A stretch of DNA of 64,000 bases. Origin: Gnetum montanum. Its lineage: Eukaryota; Plantae; Gnetophyta. A model generated the notes under the pieces. That model was not told the DNA's origin. It did not search any database and saw only the letters and a list, made by a program, of their open reading frames with translations. The translations under genes and the position numbers were made by a program. The stretch covers positions 1 to 64,000 of the forward strand of contig MNCI01003135.1 of assembly GCA_015680685.1 (NCBI GenBank), written 5' to 3'. This document shows, piece by piece, positions 1 through 64,000 of the stretch. Position 1 is the stretch's first letter; every line of letters starts with the position of its first letter.

Positions 1-845
1 CCTAGGAGGTAATCGCTGAAGATGTATGTCATGGCTCATTGGTACATCACTCCAGCATTTTTTAATCCAAAAGGCATCATGGTGTAATAAAAGGTCCCCC
101 AGGATGTCATGAATGTTGTTGTTAGCTAGTGCTCTAGGTTGATGCGTATTTGATTGTAGCCTGAGAAGCCATCCATGAAGGACAAAAGTACGTGTCCAGC
201 GGTTGTATCCACCAATTGATCAATACTCGGAAATGGGAAATTATCTTTGATTATAGCTTTATTCAAGTCCCAGAAGTCTATGTAGATGCATATTCCCCTG
301 GTCTTTTTAGGAACCACTACAATGTTAGATACCCAATCTGAGTAATCAACCACGCGAATAAAACCAACCTAGTACAGTTTAGTGATTTCATCATGTACTG
401 CTAGCGTGAATTTTGGCTTGATCTTTCGTGCTTTCTGTTTGACGACTTTGATATGGGGATCTAGGATTATGTTGTGTGGAATTAACCTTGGGTCTAGTCC
501 AGGCATATCCTCATACAACCATGCAAACACCATGATATTATTCTGGAGGACCTATTTTATGTCATCATGTACCTTTTGGCCTAATAGAGAACTAACCTTG
601 AGAGTTTTAGTCTCACCCCTATGCATAACCACAGAGACCTCGTTGAGTGGATCTTCGGTTACATCTCCAGCTTCCAGATCTAGCGTGCGCATCGATTGCT
701 TTGGTTAGTCTGGAGATGTTTCCGACACGGCTATGATTGCATCATTAAGGACTGGGTTAGCTTCTATTAGTGTGGGATCAAGCTGTCTAATGATTTTACC
801 ATGTAAGCTTGTTAAAACTAGCGGTGCAGATAAAATCTCGTCCAT
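1..845 (-). pseudogene. pol: Reverse transcriptase (Tat/Ogre type), stop-interrupted
   Basis: One frame from ATG 845: MDEILSAPL...VFAWLYEDMPGLDP...GFIRVVDYSDWVSNIVVVPKK...DFWDLNKA...SFMDGFSGYNQIRI...TTFMTSWGTFYYTMMPFGLKNAG. Confidence 0.95.
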
Positions 846-1342
846 CTATCAATTATCCTGCAAAATTGTCAAATACGAGAGTAATTAGAAAGATGACTAA
901 GTTTATGCGATTAGTGTTTAACGAACAATGCTTAGTTTAGTGTATGGGACGTGACGTGACATTACTGAGCGTAAAGCCAATTGAATTTTAAATTTCATGA
1001 ACAGTCTGTAATTAATGAGACCTGATTACAAGGAGATAAGTTATAGTAGTTTAGGGTCATTTTGGATTGTAATGCGTGTGATATATGACGTAATTAATGC
1101 CTCGATCCTCAGGTTCTAGCTCATACTGACACCAACATTTGGACAAGTCTTGCTGAAATCGGGTATCAAGTCTGTTAAATTTTGCATATAAGTAAGCGGG
1201 TTTCATTTAGAATAGGCTATTTGCTATTGCAAATTTGAATTCTTAGTTGTTACAGAGAGAAAGAAGGAAGAGTAGAAGATTGGGGTGCGTCATTTGTAAA
1301 GGCGTAAAGGGGTGAAAGTGTGAAGGCGTTAGAACTGCAACA

Positions 1343-4300
1343 ATGGCGTCGAATCTGAGAGGGAAGAACGCCAAATTGGCTAGGATTGACGAGGTGCAAG
1401 GGAGCCTGCAGCGTACCTCGCAGGTAGTGGTCGAAGTGAGAGACCCTACGCCTTTGAATCAGTAGGCTAGCCCTTGCTCATTCGTGTTACTTTTGTGGTG
1501 TTTATTCTTGTAGCGTCGCCTGTGTAAATTTAAAATTTTAGACTATGGACCTCGCGTTAAAATGAGGTTTTATACACTAGGACTATGTCTATCGTCGTAC
1601 TTAGGGACAAACCTTGCACTGTTGCAAGGGTTTAGTCGGTTTTGGCATGAATAGCTAAGTGTAATTTGTAGATTTTCTATATTTTAAGCATGCAAATCTA
1701 AATCTAGACATTGATGTATTTATTATTGTCTCTGTACAGCATCATGTTAAGACCTGTCTTAATTATCTTGGATATAGTCAAGGTTTTATGCTGCATAAAC
1801 CCAATCGTACCTAATGTTCCTCTCCTACAGACTCGGTTGTATGGGAAGGCCATATGGTTTCGAAAGGATGCGCTGGAGTTTCTACAGTTTTTACTACGTA
1901 ACTACAGCATTATTGTATGGTCACACCTGTCAGGAGATATCGTTGGCACCATTTTGGAGCACTTGCTAGTGGGTTCTACGTAGGGAATTCTAGCTTTCTT
2001 GACAGATGGGAATATTGACATTGGTCATCCCCAGGATCGCGAACTTAGTGCCAGAGGGTTAAAGTTCTTAAGTTGGATCTGGGAAATGGCTCAGTTTAGA
2101 TGCTACCAAGCATACAACACTTTGTTCGTGGCCCGTCACGTCTCGACTTATTTCCAGAACCCACCAGGCACAATGTATTATTTAGGGGGGTAAGTGGTTT
2201 TATTGCTGGTATTGTCATTATATGTCTATTGTCTTAGTTTTGTATAGTGTAAGATAAGCATATGTGGTACGGTACAGGTTTTTTATCCATGAGAACAAGT
2301 TAGTAGGCTATGGTGATACCTTAAATTGGACTGAAACGACAATAAAGGTGTTTACCTCTACTAGCAATGTATGCGTTGGTGTAATGGGGCCGATCAGCTT
2401 CGACATTCATGAATACCCCACCCGTTATGCTGATGCTTTCAAGAATTTCCAGAATCTCGGGTGGCTACATGAAGATTGGACTTTGGATCTGCCCCTTATC
2501 GTTGCGGACGTGCAGGGGAAACTTCCTCCATTTCCTTTGCCATTTGGACCTGGTAAAATTGTTGTGTATTCTATTGTTGCGTGGTGTAATTGTGAATTGT
2601 GAATGTCGTGTAATAGTATTTTATGACATGTGTCTTGCATTGTTCAGTCAAGGAATCCCTGGAGATTACCCTTACAATTTTTGGCTGCAAGGTGAATACC
2701 CTTCTCTTCCACTACGACAACATCAAGGAGGCACAACGATGGCTCAGCCATGCGGCGGCTCCAGTTGCGGTGGTCACCAAGCTACACCAAGTGAGGCTAA
2801 TGCACTTATTTTTGGTTGTAACCCCTAATTTCCCCGTCAGTGAAATGTTAACCCTAGTCAACTCGTTTAGCGAAAGAGCTGAGCGGTTTTGTACACGCGT
2901 GCATCACATACGTGTAAGTTTTGATATTGATGCTTAGCTTTTCGCAGAACTTTTCGGCATCCCCTCCAATGGCCTTCCCATAGAGGAAAAGGCGAAGAGG
3001 AGCCTTGCCTATCAGGAGTGGCTAGGAGCCAAGAAGGAGACTAAGGGAATCCCTTGTGAGAAGATCAAACCAGAGATCGCCAAGACGATTTATCCCCTAT
3101 TCCAGGCCCAAGCTTTCCCCAAAACACTCTCGTAGGGGAGGTTCTTTTCCATAGAACAGACCCGTATCATGCGGAAGGTTATGGAGGAAGGGACCTATTT
3201 TGTCTGGGTAAGCTATTTTGCTAAGGGATTACGCACTGAGATGATTAGGCTTCGCCAGAAGCTTGATTCTCATTTCAACGTGCATTACGCCTTCTTCATA
3301 GCTTGCCTTTGACATTTTGCCGAATTTTTGGTTATCCAAAGGAATGGGGTCTGGGTGGAGCAAGACCGAAATCAGCTATCCAAACCTTGGATTACCGACA
3401 TTTTCGACACTACCCATGGACAGGATCCCCCGGAAGGGATTGGTGAGTCTTTTTCTATAACGATAAGGGATTTGGTGGCATCTCGAGTGCGAGGCCCCGA
3501 CAGCATAGGCGGGGTAATGCCCACTTACACTGGTGATGCCTCGTGAGGGAAACGCTTGGCGATAGAAATTGTAGCGCCCACAACTTGGCGTAAAAGGCTT
3601 CGCTTAACCGAGGCCCCTGTGGAGCCTGGGAGTGGTAGAGGTCGAACCATGCAAGTCAGAGTTCAGTGGAGTAAACCTCCGCCTAGTAAGCATGAAAGAA
3701 ACATAGTGAGAGTTATTGTATTACGCAATTTTTATTCATGATATTTTGAATTGTGTAAATATGTATGTAATTTGAACAGTGAGACCTACGGAGTAGTTGA
3801 CCCGTGAGACAGGGGCAGTAATATTAAGTCATGGGGAAGGGGCCCCAGTTTTGGAAGAAGAGGCCCCAGCTGTTAGGATTAGCGATGCACAGACTCCTAT
3901 GCGTGAGGAGAGGGAGGAGGCGGGAACTATTGACACACTCCCCATTGTAACCGGAAGAGGTGGTAAGCGTATTGGATGTTTTGAGGAGTTTTGTTAACAA
4001 TTAAGATTTTTAACTGAATTACGCTACAGGTGAGGAAGATGCATCCAAATTTGCCTCTCTGAGCAGAACATGGAGAGAGTTTCCTGACAAATTCACCTTC
4101 ATGGAAGGCGTTGTCAACAATATGATCGAGCGCCTCGAGCACATCGATCCTGGAGCTGGTATGTTATTGCATCAATGGGTTTATTTCATTAGAAAATGAT
4201 AATATTTCATTTATGTTGATAATGTTTACTATCAGAAGCTCGCCTTTGATGGGACCCAACGGAGCCCATTGATTTGAACACAATGGAGCCTCCATCTGAT

Positions 4301-5364
4301 GGGGTGGTCATGCCACATAGCATATATGAGGAGATGCGTAAATGTGCGTTACACTCAACTCGCTCCTTGTGCGAGAGTAAGAGTGTCAATGAAGACCTCT
4401 GGAAAAGGCTACAGAGGTTAGAAAGGGAGAAGGAGTCTCTGGCCAAAGAGTTCAGAGATTTAAAATCGTGATGCGAGTTCCTGTAGGTGCAGGAAACGGG
4501 TGACGAGGACTGGCGCACAACTGTGATTGACTGCTCTAGCTATTGGACTACAATCAGAAACAATGTGCAAACTAGCTAGGAGTTGGTGGAGTAGCGGATG
4601 CAGATAGAGCTATTATCGCAGAAAAGCTAAGACTGGAAGGATTGTTGTGCAAGTGTGCAAGAGTGGGGGTAGAAAGAAAAGGATCACAAGCATTTGTATA
4701 AGTGAGAAAACATCACTTATCATCAACATTATCATGATTCTGCTATCGAAGCTCAATTCTTGCGAGTGTTCCTGGACTTCATTGGCGCATCCTAAGCTTT
4801 CGAAAAGTTTCAGGAGCAGGTGACAGTAAGCGCGTCACTGGAAAGAGAAATGACTCTTCCCGGGGGCGAGACTATTGTCCCTACTTTCTTCCCTGACCCG
4901 CATCACTGGACTAGTGTAGAAAAGGGGAAAGTGAAAGTTGGAGCTGCTTTAGGGAACGACGTATGGTCTGAATTGATTGAGAATGAAATCATGCAGTGCC
5001 TATGGGTTGGTTTAGAAAAGCTCCCGTTTGCTACAGAAGAAAGACCATCACGAGTAAGTTTAAACATTATTGAATTTAATTTTTCCTGATTGTGATGTTA
5101 AGTCTTTGATAACGTATTTTCTGTATATAGGTACAAGAGTTGGAGGGCGAAGGTGAACAGGATGAGGAAAAAGTATAAGAAGAGGAGCGTAATAGCAAAG
5201 AGCGTCCGCTTGTGGAGCCAACGTTGGAGCAAGGGCCTCGTGGGGATGGCATTCCTCACGAAGGAATACTTTCTATGAAGGACGACCCACTTGAGAAGGA
5301 TTTATTAGGCTTGGAACCTGACCTAAGGGATACTGGTGACAGTGGCACTAGGGGAGATGTGTAA
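1343..5364 (+). pseudogene. Antisense 8-exon accessory gene inside element A (NIF/FCP1-like + transposon-accessory-like domain + coiled coil + acidic tail), about 1081 aa, about 16 premature stops
   Basis: Start context AACAATGGC at 1343. Exons 1343-1461, 1740-2189, 2278-2552, 2648-3685, 3780-3962, 4030-4158, 4236-5053, 5131-5364 (3246 nt). Introns are AT-rich GT..AG with phases 2,2,1,1,1,1,0 matching on both sides and no frameshift needed. The exon 1 donor is the least certain (possible micro-exon at 1514-1521). Confidence 0.8.
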
Positions 5365-5565
5365 CTGTAATTTATGCATACTTTTATTGATTTGGATTGA
5401 ACAATGATTATATGAATGTTGACAACATTGGCATTAAGCTTTTTTGTATGGTTTTAAATGCTATTTGTATATTTATTTATTTTTGGTTTTATATCATTAT
5501 TTGCAAAGCGTAAGCAGAATTGTTAAAGACTATTGATAGTTGGTGTTGCTATAGCACGGAATTGC

Positions 5566-5703
5566 TAGTTTAAGGCCATCACGGGCCGCCAGGTAGTGTT
5601 TGTGTAAGATACAAGGTAGTTTTAGGCCATTGTGGGCCATTGCGGGCCGTTACTAGTTTTAGGCCATTGCGGGCCATTACTAGTTTTAGGCCGTTGCGGG
5701 CCA
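5566..5703. repeat. Tandem repeat, about 27 bp unit TAGTTTTAGGCCATTGCGGGCCATTAC, about 4 degenerate copies
   Basis: Directly visible units starting near 5566, 5617, 5654 and 5681. Confidence 0.85.
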
Positions 5704-5995
5704 TCTGCGTAATTTTGTAAGCGTAATTGATAATAATGTAGATTTTTGCATAATTGCACTAAAATGATCAAAGAGTATAAATAGCGTATATAAAGAAATG
5801 TGAATAGCGTAATGAATAGTAAGCGTAAATATGTAAATTGCTAAGTGTAAAAGGAAATATTAGTAAGGACGTGAAGATTATGCGTAAATATCATCCAGAT
5901 CAATCACTAATTCGTAATTGCTTCTTGATGGCCTTTACATTCAGTGATGCGTAAGGGCGGGGAGATTTGCAGCCTGACTCTTCCACATCACCATC

Positions 5996-6800
5996 CTAGA
6001 ATGGCAGGTTGGCCCAGGCTAGACTATCATCATTCGCTTCGGCTTGTTCAAGGATTCGGGGATGGGTTTGATTATCCAATGTTTCTATCTCCAAACCCCA
6101 TTCCTCTTCGATATTGTTGACAGTTCTGGGGGTGATTTCATCACTGCGTATTACAACTTCTTCCCCTGCGTAGGGTAGGTGTATTTCCTGATGGATTAGT
6201 GATGAAACCGCCCTTAGTTGGGCTAACCAAGACCTTCCTAGAATTAACTTGAACCTGGGCATCTCCTTGACGACAAGGAATGTAGCATCCATTGGGAATT
6301 GATCCCCTGCCACGAATTCAATGTGCACCATTCCCTTGACCTGAACCCATGCTCCGTTGAATGACTTTATGCATGTTGTTGTTGTGGGACTGATCTAGTC
6401 GACCAGACCCAACCTATCCACAATGGGATAAGGAATGACATTTGTAGCTGTGCCGTCATCCATGTGCACTCTCCGGATCTGGTATTGACCGACCCGAATG
6501 GTGATAAACATGGGCTCAGTTGTCACTTGACCTTTCTCTGGATCATCTTTGATGGATTTGTCATGAAAGGTCAAGGAGGTAGGTTTAGGTCGCTCAGCAT
6601 CAGAGGGAAACATGACAGCATGTATCACTTCCTCCTCCGCTGGTAAGCTTTCCTCCACAGGTATGGACATCAGCATGCGGACCATGGCCTCATGGTGTTT
6701 TTGAGATGTCATGAGCAGGTCATAGAGGCTCAGCATTGTATTTTTTTGTTTCAAAGCCTGTTTGACCTGGGTGAACACGTCAAGAAGATCCCGTTATTTA
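5996..6800 (-). pseudogene. Aspartic protease region of element A
   Basis: LSLYDLLMTSQKHHEAM (Tat/Ogre pre-protease motif), RRVHMDDGTATNVIP (active-site equivalent), FKLILGRSWL (second protease motif). Confidence 0.85.
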
Positions 6801-8898
6801 CTCGCTTGTTTGTCCCCTTTGTCTTCTTTCATTCACCCTAAGAGACAGATCTCCTTTGGCAGAACAACATCGGTCGGGGAGTTGTTCTTTTTCTTGCCAA
6901 GGGACGGTGGTTGCGTTTTTGTACTCTTGTCTTTCCCAGAAGGCGTAGATGCTGGGATAGAGGCCAAAGGCCTAGGCCTAGCAAAGCCTAGCGTAAGATG
7001 ATTCTTTGCAGCATTACTAGACGCATCCCCTTCCTTCTATTTATTAGGTGATGGTTGGTGACTTGTGTTAGAAGCCTACCCCTACGTAAAAGGGGCAGCT
7101 GATGATTTTGNTATACACATGCAACACTTGGTTTTCCAGATGTGTCAGACTACTGGCATCTAGTTTGGGTGAGCCATCGTCAATCATGCGTTGAATATCG
7201 TCTTTCAACGCCCAACAGTAATCTGTATCATGACCACACAACTAGTGGTAGTCACAGAAATGATCCAGCCTGAAAGACCTCATAACTGGTGGTTCGTCAG
7301 GTAGGGCTAAAGAAGCATTCTTCAACAGTTCACAATGACATTTATGATGCTTCAGAGCTTCATCGGATACCTTCTTGGGTTGAATGTATCCTGCCCCTAA
7401 CAATTGTTTCAATAGTTCTGAATATTTTACAGGCAGGGCTATATTCTTTGAGCGATATTTATGCTCAAAGTTTGGTTTTGGCTAGGGGGGCTTTTTAGGG
7501 GTATCCGTATCTTAGCTGGTGCTGCCTGCACTAGCCGTGGTCTCAGGAGGCACTGTAGGTGCCTTCTTGTTCTTGTTCTTTGTGCCTTCAGCCAGCATAG
7601 CTACTGTCGTTGTCGTCACTTTACCTTTGTCCTTGCCCTTGTTGTGAGCATTTTTGTAGGTGACATACAACGGGTCTTTGGTGGCCTCTGCAGCATCTTG
7701 GATGCTTTTAGTTTGAGCGAAGGCCTGGTGTAAGGAGTTAGGGGAAAGGTAATATAGCTTAGACTTGATAAAGTCATTGACTGCTCCTTTGAAGATGTCT
7801 AGTAAGTGTGGCTCCGCGATTGGCTCACGGATTTCATTCAAAGTAGCACTCCAGTGCTGTATGAACTTTTGGGTTGGTTCGAGCCCATGAGTTGATCTAA
7901 TGTGACTTCCAGCTTTAAGTTGTATTTAAAGCAAGTCACAAATTGTGTCAGAAGCTCTTCGAAGGTTGAGATGGAAGAGCGAGGGAGGGCTCAATACCAA
8001 TCTAAAGCTTTCCTTGTCAAAGACATAGCAAAGACATGGATAATCATGTGAGGCCACTCTTGTAACAACAAGGATTCGGATTTGAAGGTGACCAAGTGAG
8101 CGTTAGGAGCTCCCTCCTCATTATACTTGGTAAAATGAGGTAAGGACATCCCTGGGGGCAACGACAACGATAAAGTCTGCATCGGGCGAGTTGTAGATGT
8201 GGGATGGGGTTGGATCTAAGGGATGAAATGGGGCACAATGGATGCTGGAACCACCGATAGAATGCTGAGCACACATGGTGACAAGACAGCCCCCATGTTA
8301 TTTTGAGGTATTTGCACTTGCAGCGCAAATGGCTATGTAGTGGCTTGCGGGATGACAGGAATATGGGTTTGTGTGGTCATGGAGGTATTAAGATGGGCAA
8401 CTTCTCCATTGAGAGGGAATAAGGGATTTATGTAGGTATGAGGACTAAGAGTGTGATATGAATGTTTAGACTGGGCTGCAAATTCATCATCCTCTTCCTC
8501 CCCATTCTGGGGTTCTAGCATTGCCCGTGTAGCCTACCTCTTAGCCATGACCAACTGTGTTGAATTTCATGGTGATGTTCTGTTAAAGGAATGATGTCAT
8601 AGGCTGTTAGGGTAAAATCCTAACCCCCTTCGTGAATCATCTCAAAATTTTGTTTCACCTCGATTTCGGCTCGGCTGAGAGAAAGCTTCACTTGGATCTT
8701 GATGCAGATGGAGTTATATTCCTCAAGCGTCACGATGGTGAAAACAAGATCTTTGCCCTGCAGTCTCAGTGATCGACACGATGGTCCCTGAGGTCCTGCT
8801 ACACCTGAAGCTGGTCTGGTGACGTCGATGGGGTTCACAGATGTGGCACTCGAGTCAATGGAAATCATGGTGAATGTGGTTGTATATGTGGAATCCAT
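6801..8898 (-). pseudogene. gag: Gag of element A
   Basis: LPHFTKYNEEGAPNAHL...FAMSLTRKALDWY (retrotransposon gag). Tat/Ogre-type knuckle CDYH*LCGHDTDYCWALKDDIQRMIDDG at about 7175-7260. Confidence 0.85.
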
Positions 8899-9128
8899 TA
8901 ATCTAGTGGGTTAACAACGACAAATGACTAGATTTAAAAGGCAGTGGACAAACAAGATCACTATTAAGCTTTCTACCCGATAGGATTCTAAAGGAATCGT
9001 TACTGTGACCGATCTACATCACACGATGTTTCGTAAATTTCCCTAGAGGTATTACGTTCATGTTTTTGGAAACTCGGGTATAGATCGCTTACAAGGCTAC
9101 CCATAAAAATACGAATTGGAGCCTTAGG

Positions 9129-9145
9129 CCCTCCTTCTAGCACCA
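9129..9145 (-). other. Primer-binding site complementary to tRNA-Asn
   Basis: Minus strand TGGTGCTAGAAGGAGGG: 16/17 to the plant tRNA-Asn 3' end (CCCTCCTTCTAGCGCCA, recalled), the mismatch being a CpG deamination. It lies 6 nt from the LTR terminal ...TTACA. Confidence 0.75.
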
Positions 9146-9151
9146 GAAAAC

Positions 9152-10596
9152 TGTAACGACGGAAAATGTTGGTAGCTGGAATACCAAAAAAAATCCGTGT
9201 ACACAGTCTTAACCACGGATCCGTGCGAGGGATGTGCTAGAGAAAACGAATCTGTAGTGCACTGAATGGTCTTGTCGATCAGACAGGGACTTACTAAATC
9301 AGTAAATCTACTATGATTATAGGTTTTTCGTGGAACGATTTGATTCGATAAATCGCGAAAGGAGAGGAAAACGATGTAGATAAATCGCAACAATGACGAC
9401 GTTAACGCAACAAAAGGGAATTAGATTTAAGTGAAATGTGTGATTTCAAGATTTGTACTTTGACCCAAAAAATTGAGTATTTTGTACACAAAGTTACAAT
9501 GGGAAGACTCCAATTATCTTGTGTAGAACATACACAAAATAATAAGAAAAACTGTTCAACAAAGAGTGCAGAATGGAGCTTAGTCTACCTTGTAAGCCAA
9601 AGATGGAGTGCAAGGATGATCAAGCTCGGATGCCTATCAACCAACTATGTTTGATCAATAGATCATGCCAACTTGATCAGATAATCTTTCGATCTCTGAT
9701 CTATCTTCTTCACTTTGGGTAGCCTCTGCTCGAAACTGCCAAGGATCACCGGTGGGAGAACTGTATTTTCGCCAAAAGGTATGATCGCTCTCACTGCCAA
9801 TGCTTGAAGAATGTCTCTTATTTCTACTCAAAGATGATAACTGCCAAAAGTTGAAGATGTTAACTGCTGCTCTACTCCAAAAGGTTGAAAAAAAATCTTC
9901 TCTGGGGGGTCCTTTCTTTCTTCGCCAACTAGAGTATTTATAAGCTGTGACAGCATGCAGAAAAGGCATGACCTTGATGACATGTGTCCAAAACTCCCCG
10001 GATACCATTGACTTGACATACTAGCTATGTCACATCACATTGCGAAGTACGCTATCAACTGCCTCATGATTACGCACAATACGCACATCAGCCTATTGCG
10101 TGTATGAATAGCAAATGCGTAACCGCTTTAGCTGGCTTTACGCTGCATTACATTTGTTTATGCTGCGTTGCGTGGCAGAGTGTAACAAAGCATGGAAATA
10201 ATGAGTCAAGCTATTTTATGCTTGTTTACGTAGCAAAGCGTAGTGAAGCGTAAAGATGGATCAACTTGTTGGTAAATTACGCTTGTCGTACGCGGCGTAG
10301 CGTAACGAGCGTAAGGTGACCAATCTGTAAAAAAGAAAGGAGTCGATCTATCGTGCTTTCTTTGGACTTCCCCTTGGACCTTTTTTGAAGCTCATTACGC
10401 TGCCTTGCGTAATAGAGCGTAAGTTCAACCCTGGTCAAAAAGACTTAGCAGAATATGCAAGAAGTCGCATATTACGCTGTTTAGGCCTTAAGCTTCACCA
10501 AATCTGCTCGTTCTTCCTTCTGGAATTTTTCTGTGCACTTTCACCCAAATCGTGAATCTTCGCCTTAGGCCGATTCACAATTTCTACGGTGTTTGA
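9152..10596 (-). repeat. 5' LTR of element A, with TATAAATA at 9935-9942
   Basis: Ends TGTAACGACGGAAAA and AATTTCTACGGTGTTTGA resemble the ends of the element B LTRs (TGTAGTGATGGAAAA, AATTTCTTTGGGATGTTTCA). Sharp composition change at 10597. Confidence 0.75.
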
Positions 10597-11582
10597 ATAA
10601 GAAAGATTAATACATCACTATTCTAGTAAAGCCACAAAAAGAAAAATAAAAAGACCATGGAAAAATTTATTAGTTTGTAATTTATTCTAATTAATGTGTA
10701 TCCTTTTTGTCTTTAAGTAATCAAATATACACAACTAATGAACTTTCATTTCAATTAAATTATTGTAATTATTATTGATCTTTTCTTCTTTAAGTGATAA
10801 AATTAACACAAAAATACAAAATGAAGAAACTTTTATGTGATCATTTCGTTAATAGGTGGTAAAATAATGTAATTTTTCTTTATATTTTTTGTAATAATCA
10901 TTGAATACCAATAATATAAATTTGAGTTTGTTGTTTGGAGTCTTTATTTAAGTGGACTATATATATATGCATTTCACAATGGAAATAATAACTAAGATGG
11001 ACTCTTCTTCATTGTAGCATTCTAAATTTGATTAGCTCTACTATTTTTAGCATTTATTTTTCATTGTCATTTATCACTTTCTTAACATAATATTTATGTT
11101 TTATTATATATTAATTATTAGCAGAATGAACACAACCCAATCTTGAGTGTTAGACTTGTATTAGTTTGGTAATCACATCAGCAACACACTTGGTATACGC
11201 AATGGTATGTAAGTTTGATAATCTTGGAAGTTAGAATGAATATCTAGGTGCATGATAATAAGATGATAATTGAACATTCATCATCATATGTTAGCTTAGT
11301 ATTTATTTTTTACATTAATGGATTAGTAATTAGAGATAAATTTATTATGTTTTATATAGTTTATAACATGTATGATGCAACATCAATTATTATACTCCTC
11401 ACCAAGACCTAGCCATATATACAAAGAGGGCTCCTATGAGCATAGGTGGGAAGATAGTGATCTATGATCACATAATGATACTCAGCATTATTATTAACCC
11501 ATTCATGAATATTGTGCTTGTAGATCATATGGTTGGGCATTTGATATACTCATCACTCATTATTTGACACTATCACTAAAGA
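10597..11582 (+). mobile_element. 3' part of an old Athila-like 5' LTR (to 11562) plus decayed tRNA-Asp PBS (11565-11582); the target of element A's insertion
   Basis: The LTR end ATATGGTTGGGCAT...CACTCATTA resembles the other Athila LTR ends in this window. TGACACTATCACTAAAGA differs from a TGGCGCCGT(C/T)GCCGGGGA-type PBS only by transitions. Confidence 0.6.
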
Positions 11583-24749: not shown

Positions 24750-25500
24750 GATGATGTTGTTCCTAACTCAATATCATTTAATGTTATAAAGTGCTTATAT
24801 TAGCTACTCTTCCACTGAATCAAGGTTGATGGTAGGAAACTCCTTATTCTTTTCATGATTGTTGAATTCCAATGGAGCTACCCTTAGTTATGGAATCTAT
24901 AATTCAATAAGGAAAACAACCTCAAATGCATAAACTAGGCTATATGAGGTTAAACAAGTTGTGATTTAATAGATAGTTCGATACGCCCAAAGTGCATGGA
25001 AAAGATGCTCATGCCACTTGCATCTACCATTATTAACCCTTTTAAAGAAGGTTTATGATCACCTTATTAGTAGCTTTGGCTTGTCCATTAGCTTGAGATT
25101 AATATGATGATGAAAAGAAATGCTTGATGCTTAGTTCTTAACAAAAGGTTTGCATTTCTTGGTTACTAAATTGCAGTCCATTATTAGTAACTATGGTTAA
25201 GGTTATGTCAAAACGAGCTACTATGTTATCTAGTATAAATCTATAAAATGGTAATGATGTTGTTTTCCATAGAACTATAGCTTCAACCAACTTTGTAAAG
25301 TATTTAGTTGTGGTATGCCCTATAGAAGATTTAGTTGTTACTTGTCCAATAATGTCTATTCCCCATTGTTGGAAAAGCTAGGTGATTTGAGTAATGTGTA
25401 ATTCAATTAGTGACACATGTATTAACCTGCTATGTCATTGGTAAGTATCACAAGTTTTTACCTTCTACAAGAAATTATTTTCAATATAGGCCCAATAGCA
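24750..25500 (-). pseudogene. Integrase remnant of element B
   Basis: KVKTCDTYQ, FQQWGIDIIG, YFTKLVEA, NIVARFD..TIVTNNGLQF, SQANGQAKATNK. Confidence 0.85.
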
Positions 25501-25519
25501 TACTAATCATCTAATCATC

Positions 25520-26600
25520 TATTCTTTAAGCAAGTGTTCCATAAGTTGTAACTTATCCTTAATCCTTGAGATGAACCTATGAATAAACTACAAGCTACCT
25601 TGTAGTCCCTAAAGCTTCCTTAAGGTTAGTCAGTGTTGCCAAGTTGGTTATGGCCTTAACCTTATCAAGATTGAAATGTGTTCTTGATTTAGATACTACA
25701 AGGCCAATCATCTTACTAATTTTAATATCAAAGACATATTTCTTAGGATTGATTCTAACTTCATTTTAACTCATTGTTTAAGAACTAATTCAAAGTGATG
25801 TGCATGATCACTGACCTTTTTGGACTTAACTGCTATGTCATCAACACAATCATTAAGCAACCCTAGCATGTAATCACTAAAGATGTACATCATAGCCTAC
25901 TGATAAGTTGCACCTACATTCTTTAGATCAAATGACATCATGGTGTAACAGAAGGTTTCCTAAGGGGTTATGAAGGTTGTATACAACTAATGCTCTAGGT
26001 TGATCCTAGCTTGGTTGTATCTTGAGAAGCCATCCATAAAGGATAATAAGGCATATCTAGGAGTAGTATTGATGAGTTGGTTAATACTAGGCAAAGAAAA
26101 ATTGTCCTTAATGGTCACCTTATTTAGGTCTCAAAAATCAATACAAATGCATATAGTCCCATTTTTCTTAGGGACTACCACTATGTCAGATACCCATTCC
26201 ACATAATCGATGGCTCAAATGAAACAAGCCTGATCTAGTTTTATGATTTCACCATGGCCCACCAAGGCTAAGATTGGTCTAATTATAAACTTTTTTCTTA
26301 ACTAGTTTGATACTAGGATTGAGTACAGTGTTATGTTGCACTAAGCATGGATCAAGACTTGGAATATTTTCATATGAATAGGCAAAGACCTTAATAATGT
26401 TTTAGAGGAACTTGGTGATGCCTTGAGCCTATTGACGTTCTAGTGAGGAACATAGTTTCAGTGTTTTCTCCTCAGCACTCTATGTCGTGATAGAAACTTC
26501 AACTAGAGAGTCTTTGGTAATGTCACTAACCTCAACATCAAGTGTTTTGACTAGGTTTTCTAGCCATTCCAAATGTTTCTCTATTAAGGCTATGTGACCG
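25520..26600 (-). pseudogene. Reverse transcriptase remnant of element B
   Basis: EWVSDIVVVPKK, SFMDGFSRYNQARINLEH, CVDDIAVKS, GLQGSL*FIHRFISR. Confidence 0.9.
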
Positions 26601-36049: not shown

Positions 36050-39000
36050 GCCCTAGAAGGGAAATTTTTGTAAAGGTTTGTTGAGGGACATGTGTGGGGT
36101 TCCGTTATAGGACCTTATCTTCTGGTTGAAATTTGACTTTCCTAATTCTAAATTCATGATACATTTTTTTAAATGCCTTATGTCTCTCTTTAGCTGATAG
36201 GACCACTAATCAATTTTTTTCTAGTAGATTAAGATTTATTAATTATTCATTTTGTGCTAGACTTAAGTCAAGGTCAAGGTCACAAGCTATTTACAGTATA
36301 TAGAGATTAGATTGAATAGGTAAAGCTAGTAATTTTTCTTACACTAGGGAGTTTTCGCATTGAGTGGTACATCAAGAGGGCATTGTTGAGTTTTTTACTC
36401 CAGTATCTCCTATATTTGCTAATAGTTCACATTAGGATCTTTGTGAGTTTCCTATTTGTAATCTTAGCTTGGTTGTTGGCTTGGAGGTGTTACGGTATTT
36501 TTAGTTTATGTTCAACCCCCAAGTGTTCCATAAGCTTTGAAAAGGTAGTGCCTATAATGTGGGATCCATTATCAAAAATTAATGCACATGGCACACTAAA
36601 CCTATTTATAACATTTTTTTGTACAAACCAAGTAACAGTAAAAGATGTATAGTTAGTGATGGCTATTGCTTCTATTAATTTTATATAATAGCCAATAGTA
36701 ACTATGATGTAGGCCTTTCCATTTGACATGGGCATGATGGAATCCATGAACTTAATTTCCTAGATGTCAAAGGATTATAATGGTTGAATCCAATACTAAG
36801 GTTCCTCCATTTAAGTAGTCATTCCACCATCTTGTTGGTAGCATTCATAAGAGTGGAAAAATTATTGAGCATCCCTAAAAATGGTTGGTTAATAATACCC
36901 TATCATTAGGATTTTAAAGGCAATACATCTCCTAGCATAGAAGCCCCCATAAGGACCCTCATGAGCATTTTAAAGAATACACAATTCAACAACATTAAGG
37001 ACATACCAATGAACTAGACCATCAATGCACACCTTGTAGAGCCATCCATTGATCTACATGAAGCATTTCACCTTGTGAAAAAACTATTGTTTCTTTTAGT
37101 GGTCTAATGCTTGTGGCATCTTTTGGGTGAGAAGATAGGTGAGAATGACATTGTGCCATTTAAGCTCAGTGGGCAATTGTTTAGTTACAGCCCCAGAAAA
37201 GAGGATTTCATTAGGAAATAGGTCATATAGTGTACATTCCTCCTTTTGGTTTTCCCATCATAATTAGACAAGTGGTCAATGACTACATTCTCAGTTCCCT
37301 TTCAATCTACCATTGTAAGAACAAATTCTTGTAAACTGACCAACCACCATATGACATGGGGTCTCACCATTGTCTTATTCATCAAGAAGTGAATCATGTT
37401 GTGATCAGTGTGCACAAATACTTTCTATCTAATCACATAATGGCTAAACTTATCTAGAGCAAACACCACTACTATCAGTTCTTTTTCTATGGTGGTGTAG
37501 TTCAGTTGTGCAACCACAATGCTTTGACTTGCATAGTGGATGTAATATGGATGTTTCTTAACATAAAACTATGTAATCATAGCCTCCAAGGCATAATTTG
37601 ATGCATCTATCATAATGTTAGATGTTTTGGACTAGTTAGGATTCTATAGAATTGAATTTTTTATAAGTTTATCCTTCACCTTTTGGAATGCATTTTCACA
37701 TTCCTTGGTCTATAAAAATGAAGCATATTTCTTTGTTAACTTGACCAATGGTTTTGTAGTCTTACAGAAATTCTCTATGAATCGTCGATAATAGCTAGTG
37801 TGTCCAAGGAATGATCAAACATCTTTTGAAATTTCTAATTGGTGGGTAATTCCTTGGATGATACTTATTATTAGTAAGGTTTACCTTAGTTCCTACTTGT
37901 AAGATTCTATGGTCTAATACAATGCCTTCTTGGATCATGAGATAGAACTTTTGCCAAGTAAGCCACAAGTTTATTTTGACACATCCTTTTAGTACTTACT
38001 CAAGGTAGTCCAAGGCTTTCTTGAATGTAGCACTATAAGTGGAGAAGTCATCCATAAAGAATTTCACTCTACTACCAATTTGCTATTGAAATATGCTTAA
38101 GACTATGTTTTGGAAAGTGGCAGCAACATTGCATAGACCAAAAGGCGTTTTGCGATATTCATAGATCCCCTAGTGACTCATGAATGTTGTTTTGGCCTAG
38201 TGCTCTAGTGTAATCTAGGTTTGGTTATAGCCACTATAATGATCCAAAAAACTCTAATAGCAATGCCTAGATATGGTGTTCAACATTTGATTAACAAATG
38301 AAAATTGAAAATGATCCTTGAATATTGCCATATTCAATAGTTAAAAATTGATGCAAACCTACCACTTACGACCTTTCTTTGGCACAATCATAACTAGAGT
38401 AAGCCATCAACTATCTGCAATGGGAATGATAAATGCTATCTTGAGTAGTTTGATTTTCTCCTTGATTATCTACTTCAATTTGTTACTCAATTACCTTTGT
38501 GGTTACCTTTTTGGCTTCATGGCTAGGTCAATATAAATACGATGCTAGCATATCCTAAGATCAATCCCTATAAATTTAGGATATGACCAAGCAAAGGCTT
38601 TTGACCATTTATCAACCAGATTCAATAGCATATGTTTTCTTTCTAGAGAAATATTTGCATTAATTATTACTAGCTTCACATTCTTCAAGAATGCATATTT
38701 CATGCTGGGAGGTAGAGTTTTTAACACAAAGGGCTCTTGTTTAAAGTTTTTAGGAATTTCCAACTCTCCCAAATAGGTATCATCATTTTCATTATCAAAG
38801 AGTTGGTGATGAACTTGCTCTAATTCATCCATGTGTGCAACATAAGTGCATGTAGGGCTCTCAATAGGTTCCATGCATATTGTTCTACTTTCAAGATCAA
38901 TAGTGAACCACTAGGTGTTCTCTTTATTTGTGGCTATTGCATACAAACACCTTTGAATATCTACTTCAAGTGCACACTAACTAAATGTGAAATAGATGCT

Positions 39001-61879: not shown

Positions 61880-64000
61880 ATTTGAGCTAGATGTTTGCTT
61901 AGTGGGGAACGGATTAATGTCTTAATTAATAGAGGAACCCAAGACAATGTTATTTCTTTTAGTTTTGTTGCTAGATTAGGTTTGGTAACTAAGCCTCATC
62001 CTATACCCTATAAGATGTAGTGGTTGACTAGAGATTTCTCTCAAGAGGTGAGGAAATAATGTCCTTTGAAATTTAAAATTAGAAGTTTTCATGATGTTGT
62101 AAAGTATGATCTGCTTTCAATACATTGTGTTGATGTAATTCTTGATAGCCCTTGGAATTTTAACAATGATTCTTAGTTTGATAAAGAAAGAAATGTATGG
62201 AGTGTAGCTAGAACTAATGGAATCCTTGAGTTGATTTCCATGATGGCTAAATAAACAAGGTAGAAAAGCATACTTAATACTTCCTTAATCATTTTAGAAG
62301 AGAATGAATACATTAAGAAACATGATGGAATAGGTTTCTGATTCATTTTTTTATCAATAGTTGCTCTAACCATGATGATGTGCAAGTTAAACTTCCAACA
62401 AGTGTGCTAGAATTAAAGAATAAATTTTTCATGGTGTTCAAGGGGGGATTAGATGGACTACCACCAATGAAAAATTTACAACTTTAGATTGATTTCATCC
62501 CTATTGCTACCATTCCAAATAAGAGAGCTTACTATATTGTACCAAATCATAGAGTAGAATTACAAAAGCAAGTAGAAGAGTTGCTTATAAATGGCTTTGT
62601 GAGGGAATCCATTTTACCTTGTGCAATTCCAATGGTGCTAGTTCCAATGAAGGGCAATGGTGAATGAAGGATATACATTGATTTGAGAATTATGAATACA
62701 ATAAGAGTGAGGTATAAGATTCCTATTCCAAGTGATGGATGATATCCTTAATTTCCTTATCAATGTAGAGATTTTTAGAAAAACTGATTTGAAGAGTAGT
62801 TACTATCAAATTAGAATTAGGCTTGGTGATGAATGGAAGAAAAATTTTAAGACACTGGATGGATTGCTTAAGTGATTGGTGATGCAATTTGGACCCACAA
62901 ATGCACCTACTACATTCATGAGGTTAATGCATAATGTATTGAAGAAGTTAATAAGTAAGTGTTGTATCATCCTTTTTAAGATTTTTGATGTATAGCTCTA
63001 ATGAGAAAGAGAACTTGGATCACTTGTAGGTAGTGTGTCTTCAATTAGAGGAGGCTTAGCTAGTTATCAATGTAAAGAAAAGTCATTTCTTCAAAAGGAA
63101 AATCATATATTTTTGTCATCTGATTTCTAAAAACCAAATTCAAATGAAAGATACCAAGGTGAAAGCTATTAGGGATTGGCCAACTCCTAAGAACAGTGAG
63201 GTAAGATCATTCCTTAGTTTAGCATGTTTTTATAGATGATTCATCAAAAACTTCAATGATATTTCTTGAATTATATTTTCTTTGTTGAATAAAAATAAAT
63301 ATTTTAGGTAGGATAATGAATCCCAATGGAGCTCTGACTTTTTCAAAGAAATAATTACCAATGAACTACTGCTTGTGATTCCATATTCCTAGAAGCTTTT
63401 TCAGGATGAGATCGATGCAAGTGGACTTACTATTGGTGGGTTACTTTGACAAGAAGGTAGGCCTATTACTTTCTTTTCTGAATAGTTGAATAAGTTAAGG
63501 CAAAAATATGTTGTATATGAGAAGCACTTGTACACTATTCTTTAGGAAATCAACAATTGGAGGAGTTGTTGCCCAAGGAGTTTACTTTGATGATAGATCA
63601 TAAAACACTACAATTTCTAAACTCTCAAAGGATTTGAATATAAAGCACATGAAGTTAGTTGAACAATTATAGAAGTTTAGTAATGTGTTGAATTGTCCAA
63701 GGTGCATATGATGAATTTCAGTGTACCTTATTTAAAAGGTATGGATGACTTTACTGATTTGTACAAGCATGATGCTAATTTTGGGTAGGTTTTCAGGAGC
63801 CTAAAAGAGCCATTATTGAGTAGGATAGACCATTAGAGGGAATATCATATTCAAGATGAATTATTATTTAAAAATGGAAAGGTATTTGTTTCTAACAATG
63901 ATTTTAGGAAAAAGATTATGTTTGAAAAGCATTATAGTATCATGGAAGGTTATATGAGTAGGGATAAAATATTGGAAATTATGGGTATACACTATTATTT
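61880..64000 (+). pseudogene. pol: Chromovirus pol (PR about 61900-62160, RT about 62450-63250, RNase H about 63380-63680, start of INT)
   Basis: LINRGTQDNVIS, PCAIPMVLVP, KTDLKSSYYQIRIRLGDEWK, MQFGPTNAPTTFMRLM, EIDASGLTIGGLL*QEGRPI. Confidence 0.9.

Follow-up and report, generated by a model that had tools for sequence, protein, structure and literature searches.

A plus-strand reading frame near the start of a 64,000-nucleotide stretch of Gnetum montanum DNA (the window, by which we mean the whole stretch analysed) had been interpreted in a preliminary description as a captured FCP1/NIF-like HAD phosphatase domain that looks catalytically dead. This locus raises the questions of whether such a domain is present, what carries it, and whether its altered active site belongs to one decayed copy or to an entire family.

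A predicted antisense gene in a Ty3/gypsy element

A single decayed Ty3/gypsy element, oriented along the minus strand, makes up the initial 10.6 kb of the window, with the following features.

1 to 857, minus strand: N-terminal part of a Tat/Ogre-like reverse transcriptase (RT), running off the window (RVT_1 match at 3-842, E=1.5e-8)
1343 to 5364, plus strand: predicted nine-exon gene of 1032 codons, antisense to the retrotransposon, between protease and RT
5566 to 5705, no strand assigned: short tandem array of 25-27 nt units, 3' of the antisense gene
6128 to 6769, minus strand: gag-pro protease region (tblastn E=3e-17 to P0093, 539-742), named from its position within the matching polyproteins
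6900 to 8950 (approximate bounds), minus strand: decayed gag region (Retrotrans_gag E=0.057 at ~7874-8035)
9990 to 10620 (approximate bounds), minus strand: probable 5' LTR and primer-binding region, suggested by a drop in GC content and a GCGTAA/TTACGC cluster

The closest relatives of the RT were proteins from the conifers Taxus (59%) and Cryptomeria (56%) and polyproteins from Vitis (grape, 49-56%). Many of these RT relatives carry a second RNase H, a mark of the Tat clade that supports a Tat-like assignment. The gag-protease-RT order and an RT nearest to Tat-type polyproteins indicate a Tat-like Ty3/gypsy element. The 5.3-kb interval between protease and RT gave no pol match, and the absence of an RNase H match from this spacer argues against TatI/II. 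The flanks are AT-rich, with an observed/expected CpG ratio of 0.12.

The opposite strand of the spacer carries the predicted gene, which is composed as follows.

1343 to 1461, 1740 to 2189, 2278 to 2552, 2648 to 2790 and 2938 to 3685, plus strand: predicted exons 1 to 5
3780 to 3962, 4030 to 4158, 4236 to 5053 and 5131 to 5364, plus strand: predicted exons 6 to 9
2190 to 2277, plus strand: predicted intron 2 (GT..AG, 88 nt, GC 0.33, frame kept)
4236 to 5364, plus strand: exons 8 and 9, charged, probably a coiled coil and an acidic tail (Pfam coil, charge profile)

All eight predicted introns have GT..AG borders, and their GC content (0.23-0.42) contrasts with that of the exons (0.44-0.55). 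The frame is continuous without a frameshift and has 15 internal stops in this copy; with the final one included, the model frame contains 16 stops versus 37-62 in the other five frames. The exon ends were picked by eye and frame continuity was thus partly selected, whereas the GC composition is independent of that choice. Exon 8 is the weakest exon (9 stops versus 13 and 18). The peptides quoted in the preliminary description were recovered in one plus-strand frame that starts at ATG 1744 and is interrupted by a single TAG at 1981, and the intron predicted there is intron 2 of the present model.

Scans of exons 3-8 against Pfam and NCBIfam returned no meaningful family (exon 9 was covered by one scan). 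Among the exons that were scanned, none matched a transposase in Pfam, and the antisense gene matched neither PMD nor Transposase_28. In the ESM Atlas, part of exon 5 was without a usable match, and exon 3 was matched by unnamed bacterial clusters only, with low recognition. The Pfam coil matches in exons 8-9 were weak (E=0.15 and 0.77). Exons 3-5 may resemble the extra-ORF domains of the Athila/PMD type.

The whole antisense gene is enclosed by a predicted GT..AG pair on the element strand.

858 to 5938, minus strand: candidate 5081-nt Ogre-type intron

This pair (5938..858) would bring the protease and RT frames together in phase 0, an in-frame joint that is weak evidence alone, as phase 0 occurs in three of six donors and one of six acceptors among those listed. 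An ATG in the RT just past the candidate acceptor (window 845-857, minus strand) could give pol its own translation start.

The gene might instead be a separate nested mobile unit, or a captured host fragment, lodged between protease and RT in this copy. Such an origin would suit the eight introns, which are unusual in a retroelement gene, and is favoured by the weakness of the in-frame intron pair as evidence. It is opposed by the lack of detectable terminal inverted repeats around the gene cassette, by the lack of a transposase match in the scanned exons, and by a stop density (15 of 1032 codons) equal to that of pol (11 of 641, p=0.69). In addition, 28 of the 29 GCGTAA/TTACGC hexamers in the window lie within 969-10472, clustered at 5508-5949 in the spacer and at 10070-10472 in the LTR-like region; they possibly represent a regulatory motif shared by spacer and LTR, or merely reflect younger age. 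We consider a nested unit improbable, and the antisense gene is likely to be integral to the element.

Homology and relatives of the exon 2 domain

The domain at issue occupies most of exon 2.

1744 to 2175, plus strand: NIF/HAD domain (FCP1-homology, DxNG-type), exon 2 residues 1-144, with one stop at 1981

The Pfam NIF model (PF03031), which had been proposed as a check, matched exon 2 with E=0.0046, although the score of 17.1 bits is under the curated cut-off of 21.8. An independent profile was also built: its members were gathered by a motif IV pattern that is absent from the window (at least 122 loci), and the 34 of these loci that also had motif I yielded 22 distinct domains. Exon 2 scored 33.0-33.5 bits against this 22-domain profile. 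By comparison, none of 2000 shuffles exceeded 6.1 bits, the reversed sequence scored -2.7, and no other six-frame chunk of the window scored above 3.0. Similarly, exon 2 reached 31 bits versus 10.1 for the control with a profile of 149 host domains, taken from the 120 top-scoring plant proteins among 406 hits and gathered with a profile that included the exon. The alignment with the host domains is collinear over motifs I-IV and gap-free through N-T-L-x-x-(DD or AR)...N-P, at about 25% identity. Based on these results, the exon 2 domain is almost certainly homologous, if remotely, to the plant FCP1-homology NIF/HAD domain, and the claim of a host-derived HAD fold on a mobile element is upheld at the level of sequence comparison.

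Direct searches were less informative: none of 17 candidates from a sequence search with the exon was a true relative, the PDB sequence search gave no matches, and metagenome contigs yielded 95 pattern matches, none of them related to the exon. A bacterial RTX-repeat calcium-binding protein, the sole match among 1.84 billion, was rejected as a repeat-summed chance match. The fold model obtained with the host alignment has HAD topology at pLDDT 77, a circular result that inherits the host alignment, and the single-sequence model of the domain was uninformative (pLDDT 47). The homology had also been thought to continue across intron 2. This could not be reproduced with a profile built from 108 C-terminal segments of the hosts, to which the spliced and unspliced sequences both scored -1.3 bits, compared with 2.8 bits at the 99th percentile of shuffles.

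Among the same 149 host domains (from the best 120 of 406 hits), motif I reads DxNG in 119 and DxD in none, motif III retains its Lys in 133, and motif IV retains DD in 104. The host profile was nearest to UBLCP1 in the PDB (E=2.6e-9), with Scp1 at 2e-4. The related host family thus appears from its motifs and profile matches to be nearer to UBLCP1 than to FCP1/SCP, with the general acid/base already absent, and this DxNG subfamily may itself be non-catalytic. The observation that motif I of the element keeps only the first Asp holds, and is equally true of the hosts; the proposal that the fold was repurposed after capture is accordingly needed only in part. A fungal DXNXT group of NIF proteins is called pseudophosphatase in the accessible part of one report (PMC13216928), and we infer that it is the same subfamily as the plant DxNG proteins.

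These relationships bear on the suggestion that the domain is a dead CTD phosphatase that binds the phosphorylated CTD of RNA polymerase II. The alignment-driven model matches the folds of Scp1, CTDNEP1, Tim50, Fcp1, and UBLCP1, with the Scp1 family best by E-value (1e-4), and involvement in transcription would be in keeping with an accessory protein. However, UBLCP1 gave the highest TM-score (0.61, 21% identity) and the related hosts are of the DxNG type; among the NCBIfam models listed for exon 2 only TIGR02245 (HAD-IIID) matched, weakly (E=0.013), and no Dullard/SCP or FCP1 model was present. Among the papers listed by the literature search, there was no report of the host DxNG family acting on the CTD. 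A CTD-phosphatase-like function was not supported, and we regard CTD binding as very improbable.

The element domain resembles the DxNG NIF proteins of plants, algae, and fungi (for example, Ginkgo P0170 and Cryptomeria P0193) in its collinear motifs I-IV. It is N-terminal in the element gene, a placement shared by 30 of the 92 single-domain hosts among the best 120 of 406 hits, and differs from the hosts in that they mostly keep the motif III Lys and the motif IV DD. The host DxNG proteins (P0122-P0241) often contain two or three tandem domains, some of which have DxGG or DxSG at motif I and DN, EN, or EH at motif IV; degenerate pockets thus recur in hosts.

The donor of the domain was sought in a phylogeny, as had been advised. 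The tree was computed from 72 rows (a chosen domain subset without UBLCP1) and left the element domain unplaced on a branch of length 7.66. The comparison of intron positions, also suggested earlier, separated the element from its hosts: in seed-plant-like host loci (the set compared, which is without gymnosperm gene structures) the donor directly follows the NP codons in 24 of 26 cases, whereas the intron 2 donor of the element lies 8 2/3 codons past the NP motif and is not at the seed-plant host position. The absence of the host intron would fit capture via mRNA or from an intron-free gene, followed by later intron gain.

FCP1-homology domains were also observed at AT-rich, frameshifted, multi-copy loci (L002, L004, L009, L013, L016, L027, L031, L032, L038, L041, L047, L048, L052, L062, L067, and L075-L078), in some cases twice per locus, and long flanks are common to many of them. 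No pol match was found in their 2.5-kb flanks. They are possibly another plant repeat that captured the same host domain independently and kept DD.

Active-site residues across the family

Part of the stretch was present in eight DNA runs carrying four organism labels from three studies. In four runs, 2207, 2007, 2973, and 2212 contigs aligned to positions 1750-2160 (411 bases); thousands of aligned contigs per run imply a high-copy family, and a single-copy host pseudogene was ruled out by this copy number. Differences from the window copy were tabulated at a threshold of 40%, which gave 38 rows at 36 places and is blind to alleles below 40% and to copies less than 80% alike. The motifs have the following positions.

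1771 to 1782, plus strand: motif I, D-I-V-K in this copy, with Asp and Val unchanged across the family
1918 to 1923, plus strand: motif II W-S, kept (Trp59-Ser60)
2062 to 2064, plus strand: motif III position, residue 107, Lys in this copy only; an Arg codon has >99% of depth in all four runs
2131 to 2136, plus strand: motif IV position, Ala-Arg (A130-R131, codons GCC CGT, gap-free) replacing Asp-Asp

No difference of at least 40% was recorded at 1771-1779 or 2110-2160 in any of the four runs, and the motif IV bin was among the deepest; Asp10, Val12, and Ala130-Arg131 are therefore the majority state in all four. At motif IV no other letter reaches 40% in any run, and the replacement of DD by AR noted previously in this copy was confirmed. 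Motif I reads D-I-V rather than DxD both here and in the family majority, and residue 13, a Lys in this copy, is Gly in most copies, like hosts. The family majority thus has neither DxD nor DD. The stop at 1981 is not common to most copies, as 69-76% of depth differs there.

This copy has A or T where other copies have G or C at 25 of the 36 places, an excess that is a methylation-decay pattern. Sites polymorphic in the family are concentrated at third codon positions (16 of 22, p=2e-4) and are mostly synonymous (14 of 22, p=0.007), compared with 2 of 14 and 4 of 14, respectively, for changes near-private to this copy. The split between the two classes (at 0.85) was set post hoc, and the comparison is confined to one exon; with all 36 places pooled, 18 are at third positions (p=0.03). 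These patterns indicate that the active site was lost family-wide while the frame stayed conserved, in agreement with the earlier view of a missing catalytic apparatus and extending it from this copy to the family. The antisense gene probably has a selected protein function.

According to the accessible text of PMC8069645, the HAD mechanism depends on the second Asp of motif I, the motif III Lys, and the acidic residues of motif IV. As these residues are gone, the acid/base and the Mg site are removed, and the residue pattern makes it very probable that the element domain is without canonical phosphatase activity. An enzyme working by a non-canonical, metal-free route, with Arg replacing Mg, would explain why the nucleophile Asp and the motif II Ser are kept, and an active enzyme exists among motif-predicted pseudophosphatases (PMC13216928, in the part available). 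With the general acid/base, the Lys, and both motif IV acids missing, we find such residual catalysis hardly credible.

The domain could also be a structural remnant, serving as a scaffold or spacer around an empty old active site while function resides in the middle and coiled-coil parts. Its extreme divergence (branch 7.66), the undetectable C-terminal part of the host domain, and the alteration of both motifs III and IV would be expected of such a remnant. Conversely, the pocket residues Asp10 and Trp59-Ser60 and the N-T-L..N-P stretch are kept across the family, and the third-position bias lies within exon 2 itself, which makes a mere remnant unlikely. We lean slightly towards the exon 2 product being a metal-free binding module, rather than an enzyme, that fronts an accessory protein of the element.

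Transcripts and proposed role of the antisense gene

Four RNA runs of one species carrying the family contributed 172, 45, 339, and 71 reads (627 in total), drawn from 2-26% of each run; all came from other copies, none of them 99% alike. No splice joint of the antisense gene was present in the 627 reads of the four runs, and intron 2 was well covered by reads in run X11. At the low depth of these runs no protease-RT splice joint was found either. In runs X11 and X12 the first mates were mainly on the minus strand over 884-2539. Mostly minus first mates correspond to plus-strand RNA in common stranded libraries; the library type of X11 and X12 is not stated. The RNA data neither show nor exclude splicing of the antisense gene. 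Starts of RNA molecules pile up at two positions, 2390 (two runs) and 1276 (one run), and may be library artefacts.

In the explanation that we propose, the antisense gene would be a part of the element and would have spread with it. Its antisense orientation would allow the introns to survive reverse transcription of genomic RNA. A promoter of its own within the spacer would drive transcription of the gene, and splicing would give an mRNA for a protein of ~1030 residues, consisting of a HAD fold, an unnamed middle domain, a coiled coil, and an acidic tail, while the 5.1-kb spacer would be removed from pol mRNA as an Ogre-type intron and retained in genomic RNA. The pocket, formed by Asp, Ser, and two Arg without a Mg site, may hold a phosphate or acidic group without hydrolysis or, alternatively, a partner that it shares with the host DxNG protein. 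The HAD module might then control element transcription or silencing as a decoy or adaptor, a role that is plausible with the balance tipped a little against it. The complete arrangement, an eight-intron antisense gene hidden in a gag-pro/pol intron and bearing a captured HAD domain with arginines replacing the metal site, is a speculative and rather doubtful combination. If true, one locus would give rise to genomic RNA, a spliced pol mRNA, and an opposite-strand mRNA, and the HAD product would be a phosphate reader or a decoy against host control.

Parts of this arrangement are already known in Ty3/gypsy elements, including antisense extra ORFs and captured enzymes (PMC9289625, as far as its available text goes). 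Antisense extra ORFs with coiled coils are described as typical of Tat elements in the available part of PMC4408406, with PMD-coiled coil proteins in gymnosperm lineage III and Ogre, and Transposase_28-coiled coil proteins in Retand. The present element shares with them a Tat-like RT, a long antisense gene, a likely terminal coiled coil, and a spacer tandem array (PMC4408406, PMC11963269; accessible parts). Tat extra ORFs are described there as ORFs, located either 5' of gag or 3' of pol. The element gene, in contrast, sits in the interval from protease to RT, is interrupted by eight predicted introns, and begins with a HAD fold. In Ogre, the spacer between GAG-PROT and RT averages 274 bp and was shown to be spliced (PMC6317226, portions available). 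The candidate spacer is at the same place and its GT..AG pair is able to join the frames, but it is 5081 bp long, predicted, and contains a gene. Five supplementary files of that paper (17,418 characters) contained no NIF/HAD term; a large extra-ORF table is perhaps elsewhere.

Orchid Gypsy elements carry a captured AlkB m6A demethylase (PMC9289625, accessible text), likewise a case in which a Gypsy lineage has fixed a domain from a host enzyme. The orchid AlkB is active and close to its host counterpart, whereas the element HAD domain has its distant relatives at ~25% identity and lacks most catalytic residues; that report, in its accessible text, mentions no HAD/NIF domain. No paper in the open-licence literature was found to describe HAD/NIF cargo, or a spliced gene located between the protease and RT regions. 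The additional genes carried by plant retrotransposons have long been puzzling, and a fold that can be recognised, with a pocket altered in a defined way, in a constrained high-copy family makes an accessory function testable. The unstudied host DxNG family is a possible player in transposon control.

Elsewhere in the window, further decayed gypsy pol remnants were observed at 25039-26554 (minus strand), 37263-38901 (minus strand), and 63060-63524 (plus strand), together with old direct-repeat pairs at 33071-33673/42212-42834, 22554-23456/28203-29250, and 51683-52345/58687-59266, all of them ordinary old LTR elements.
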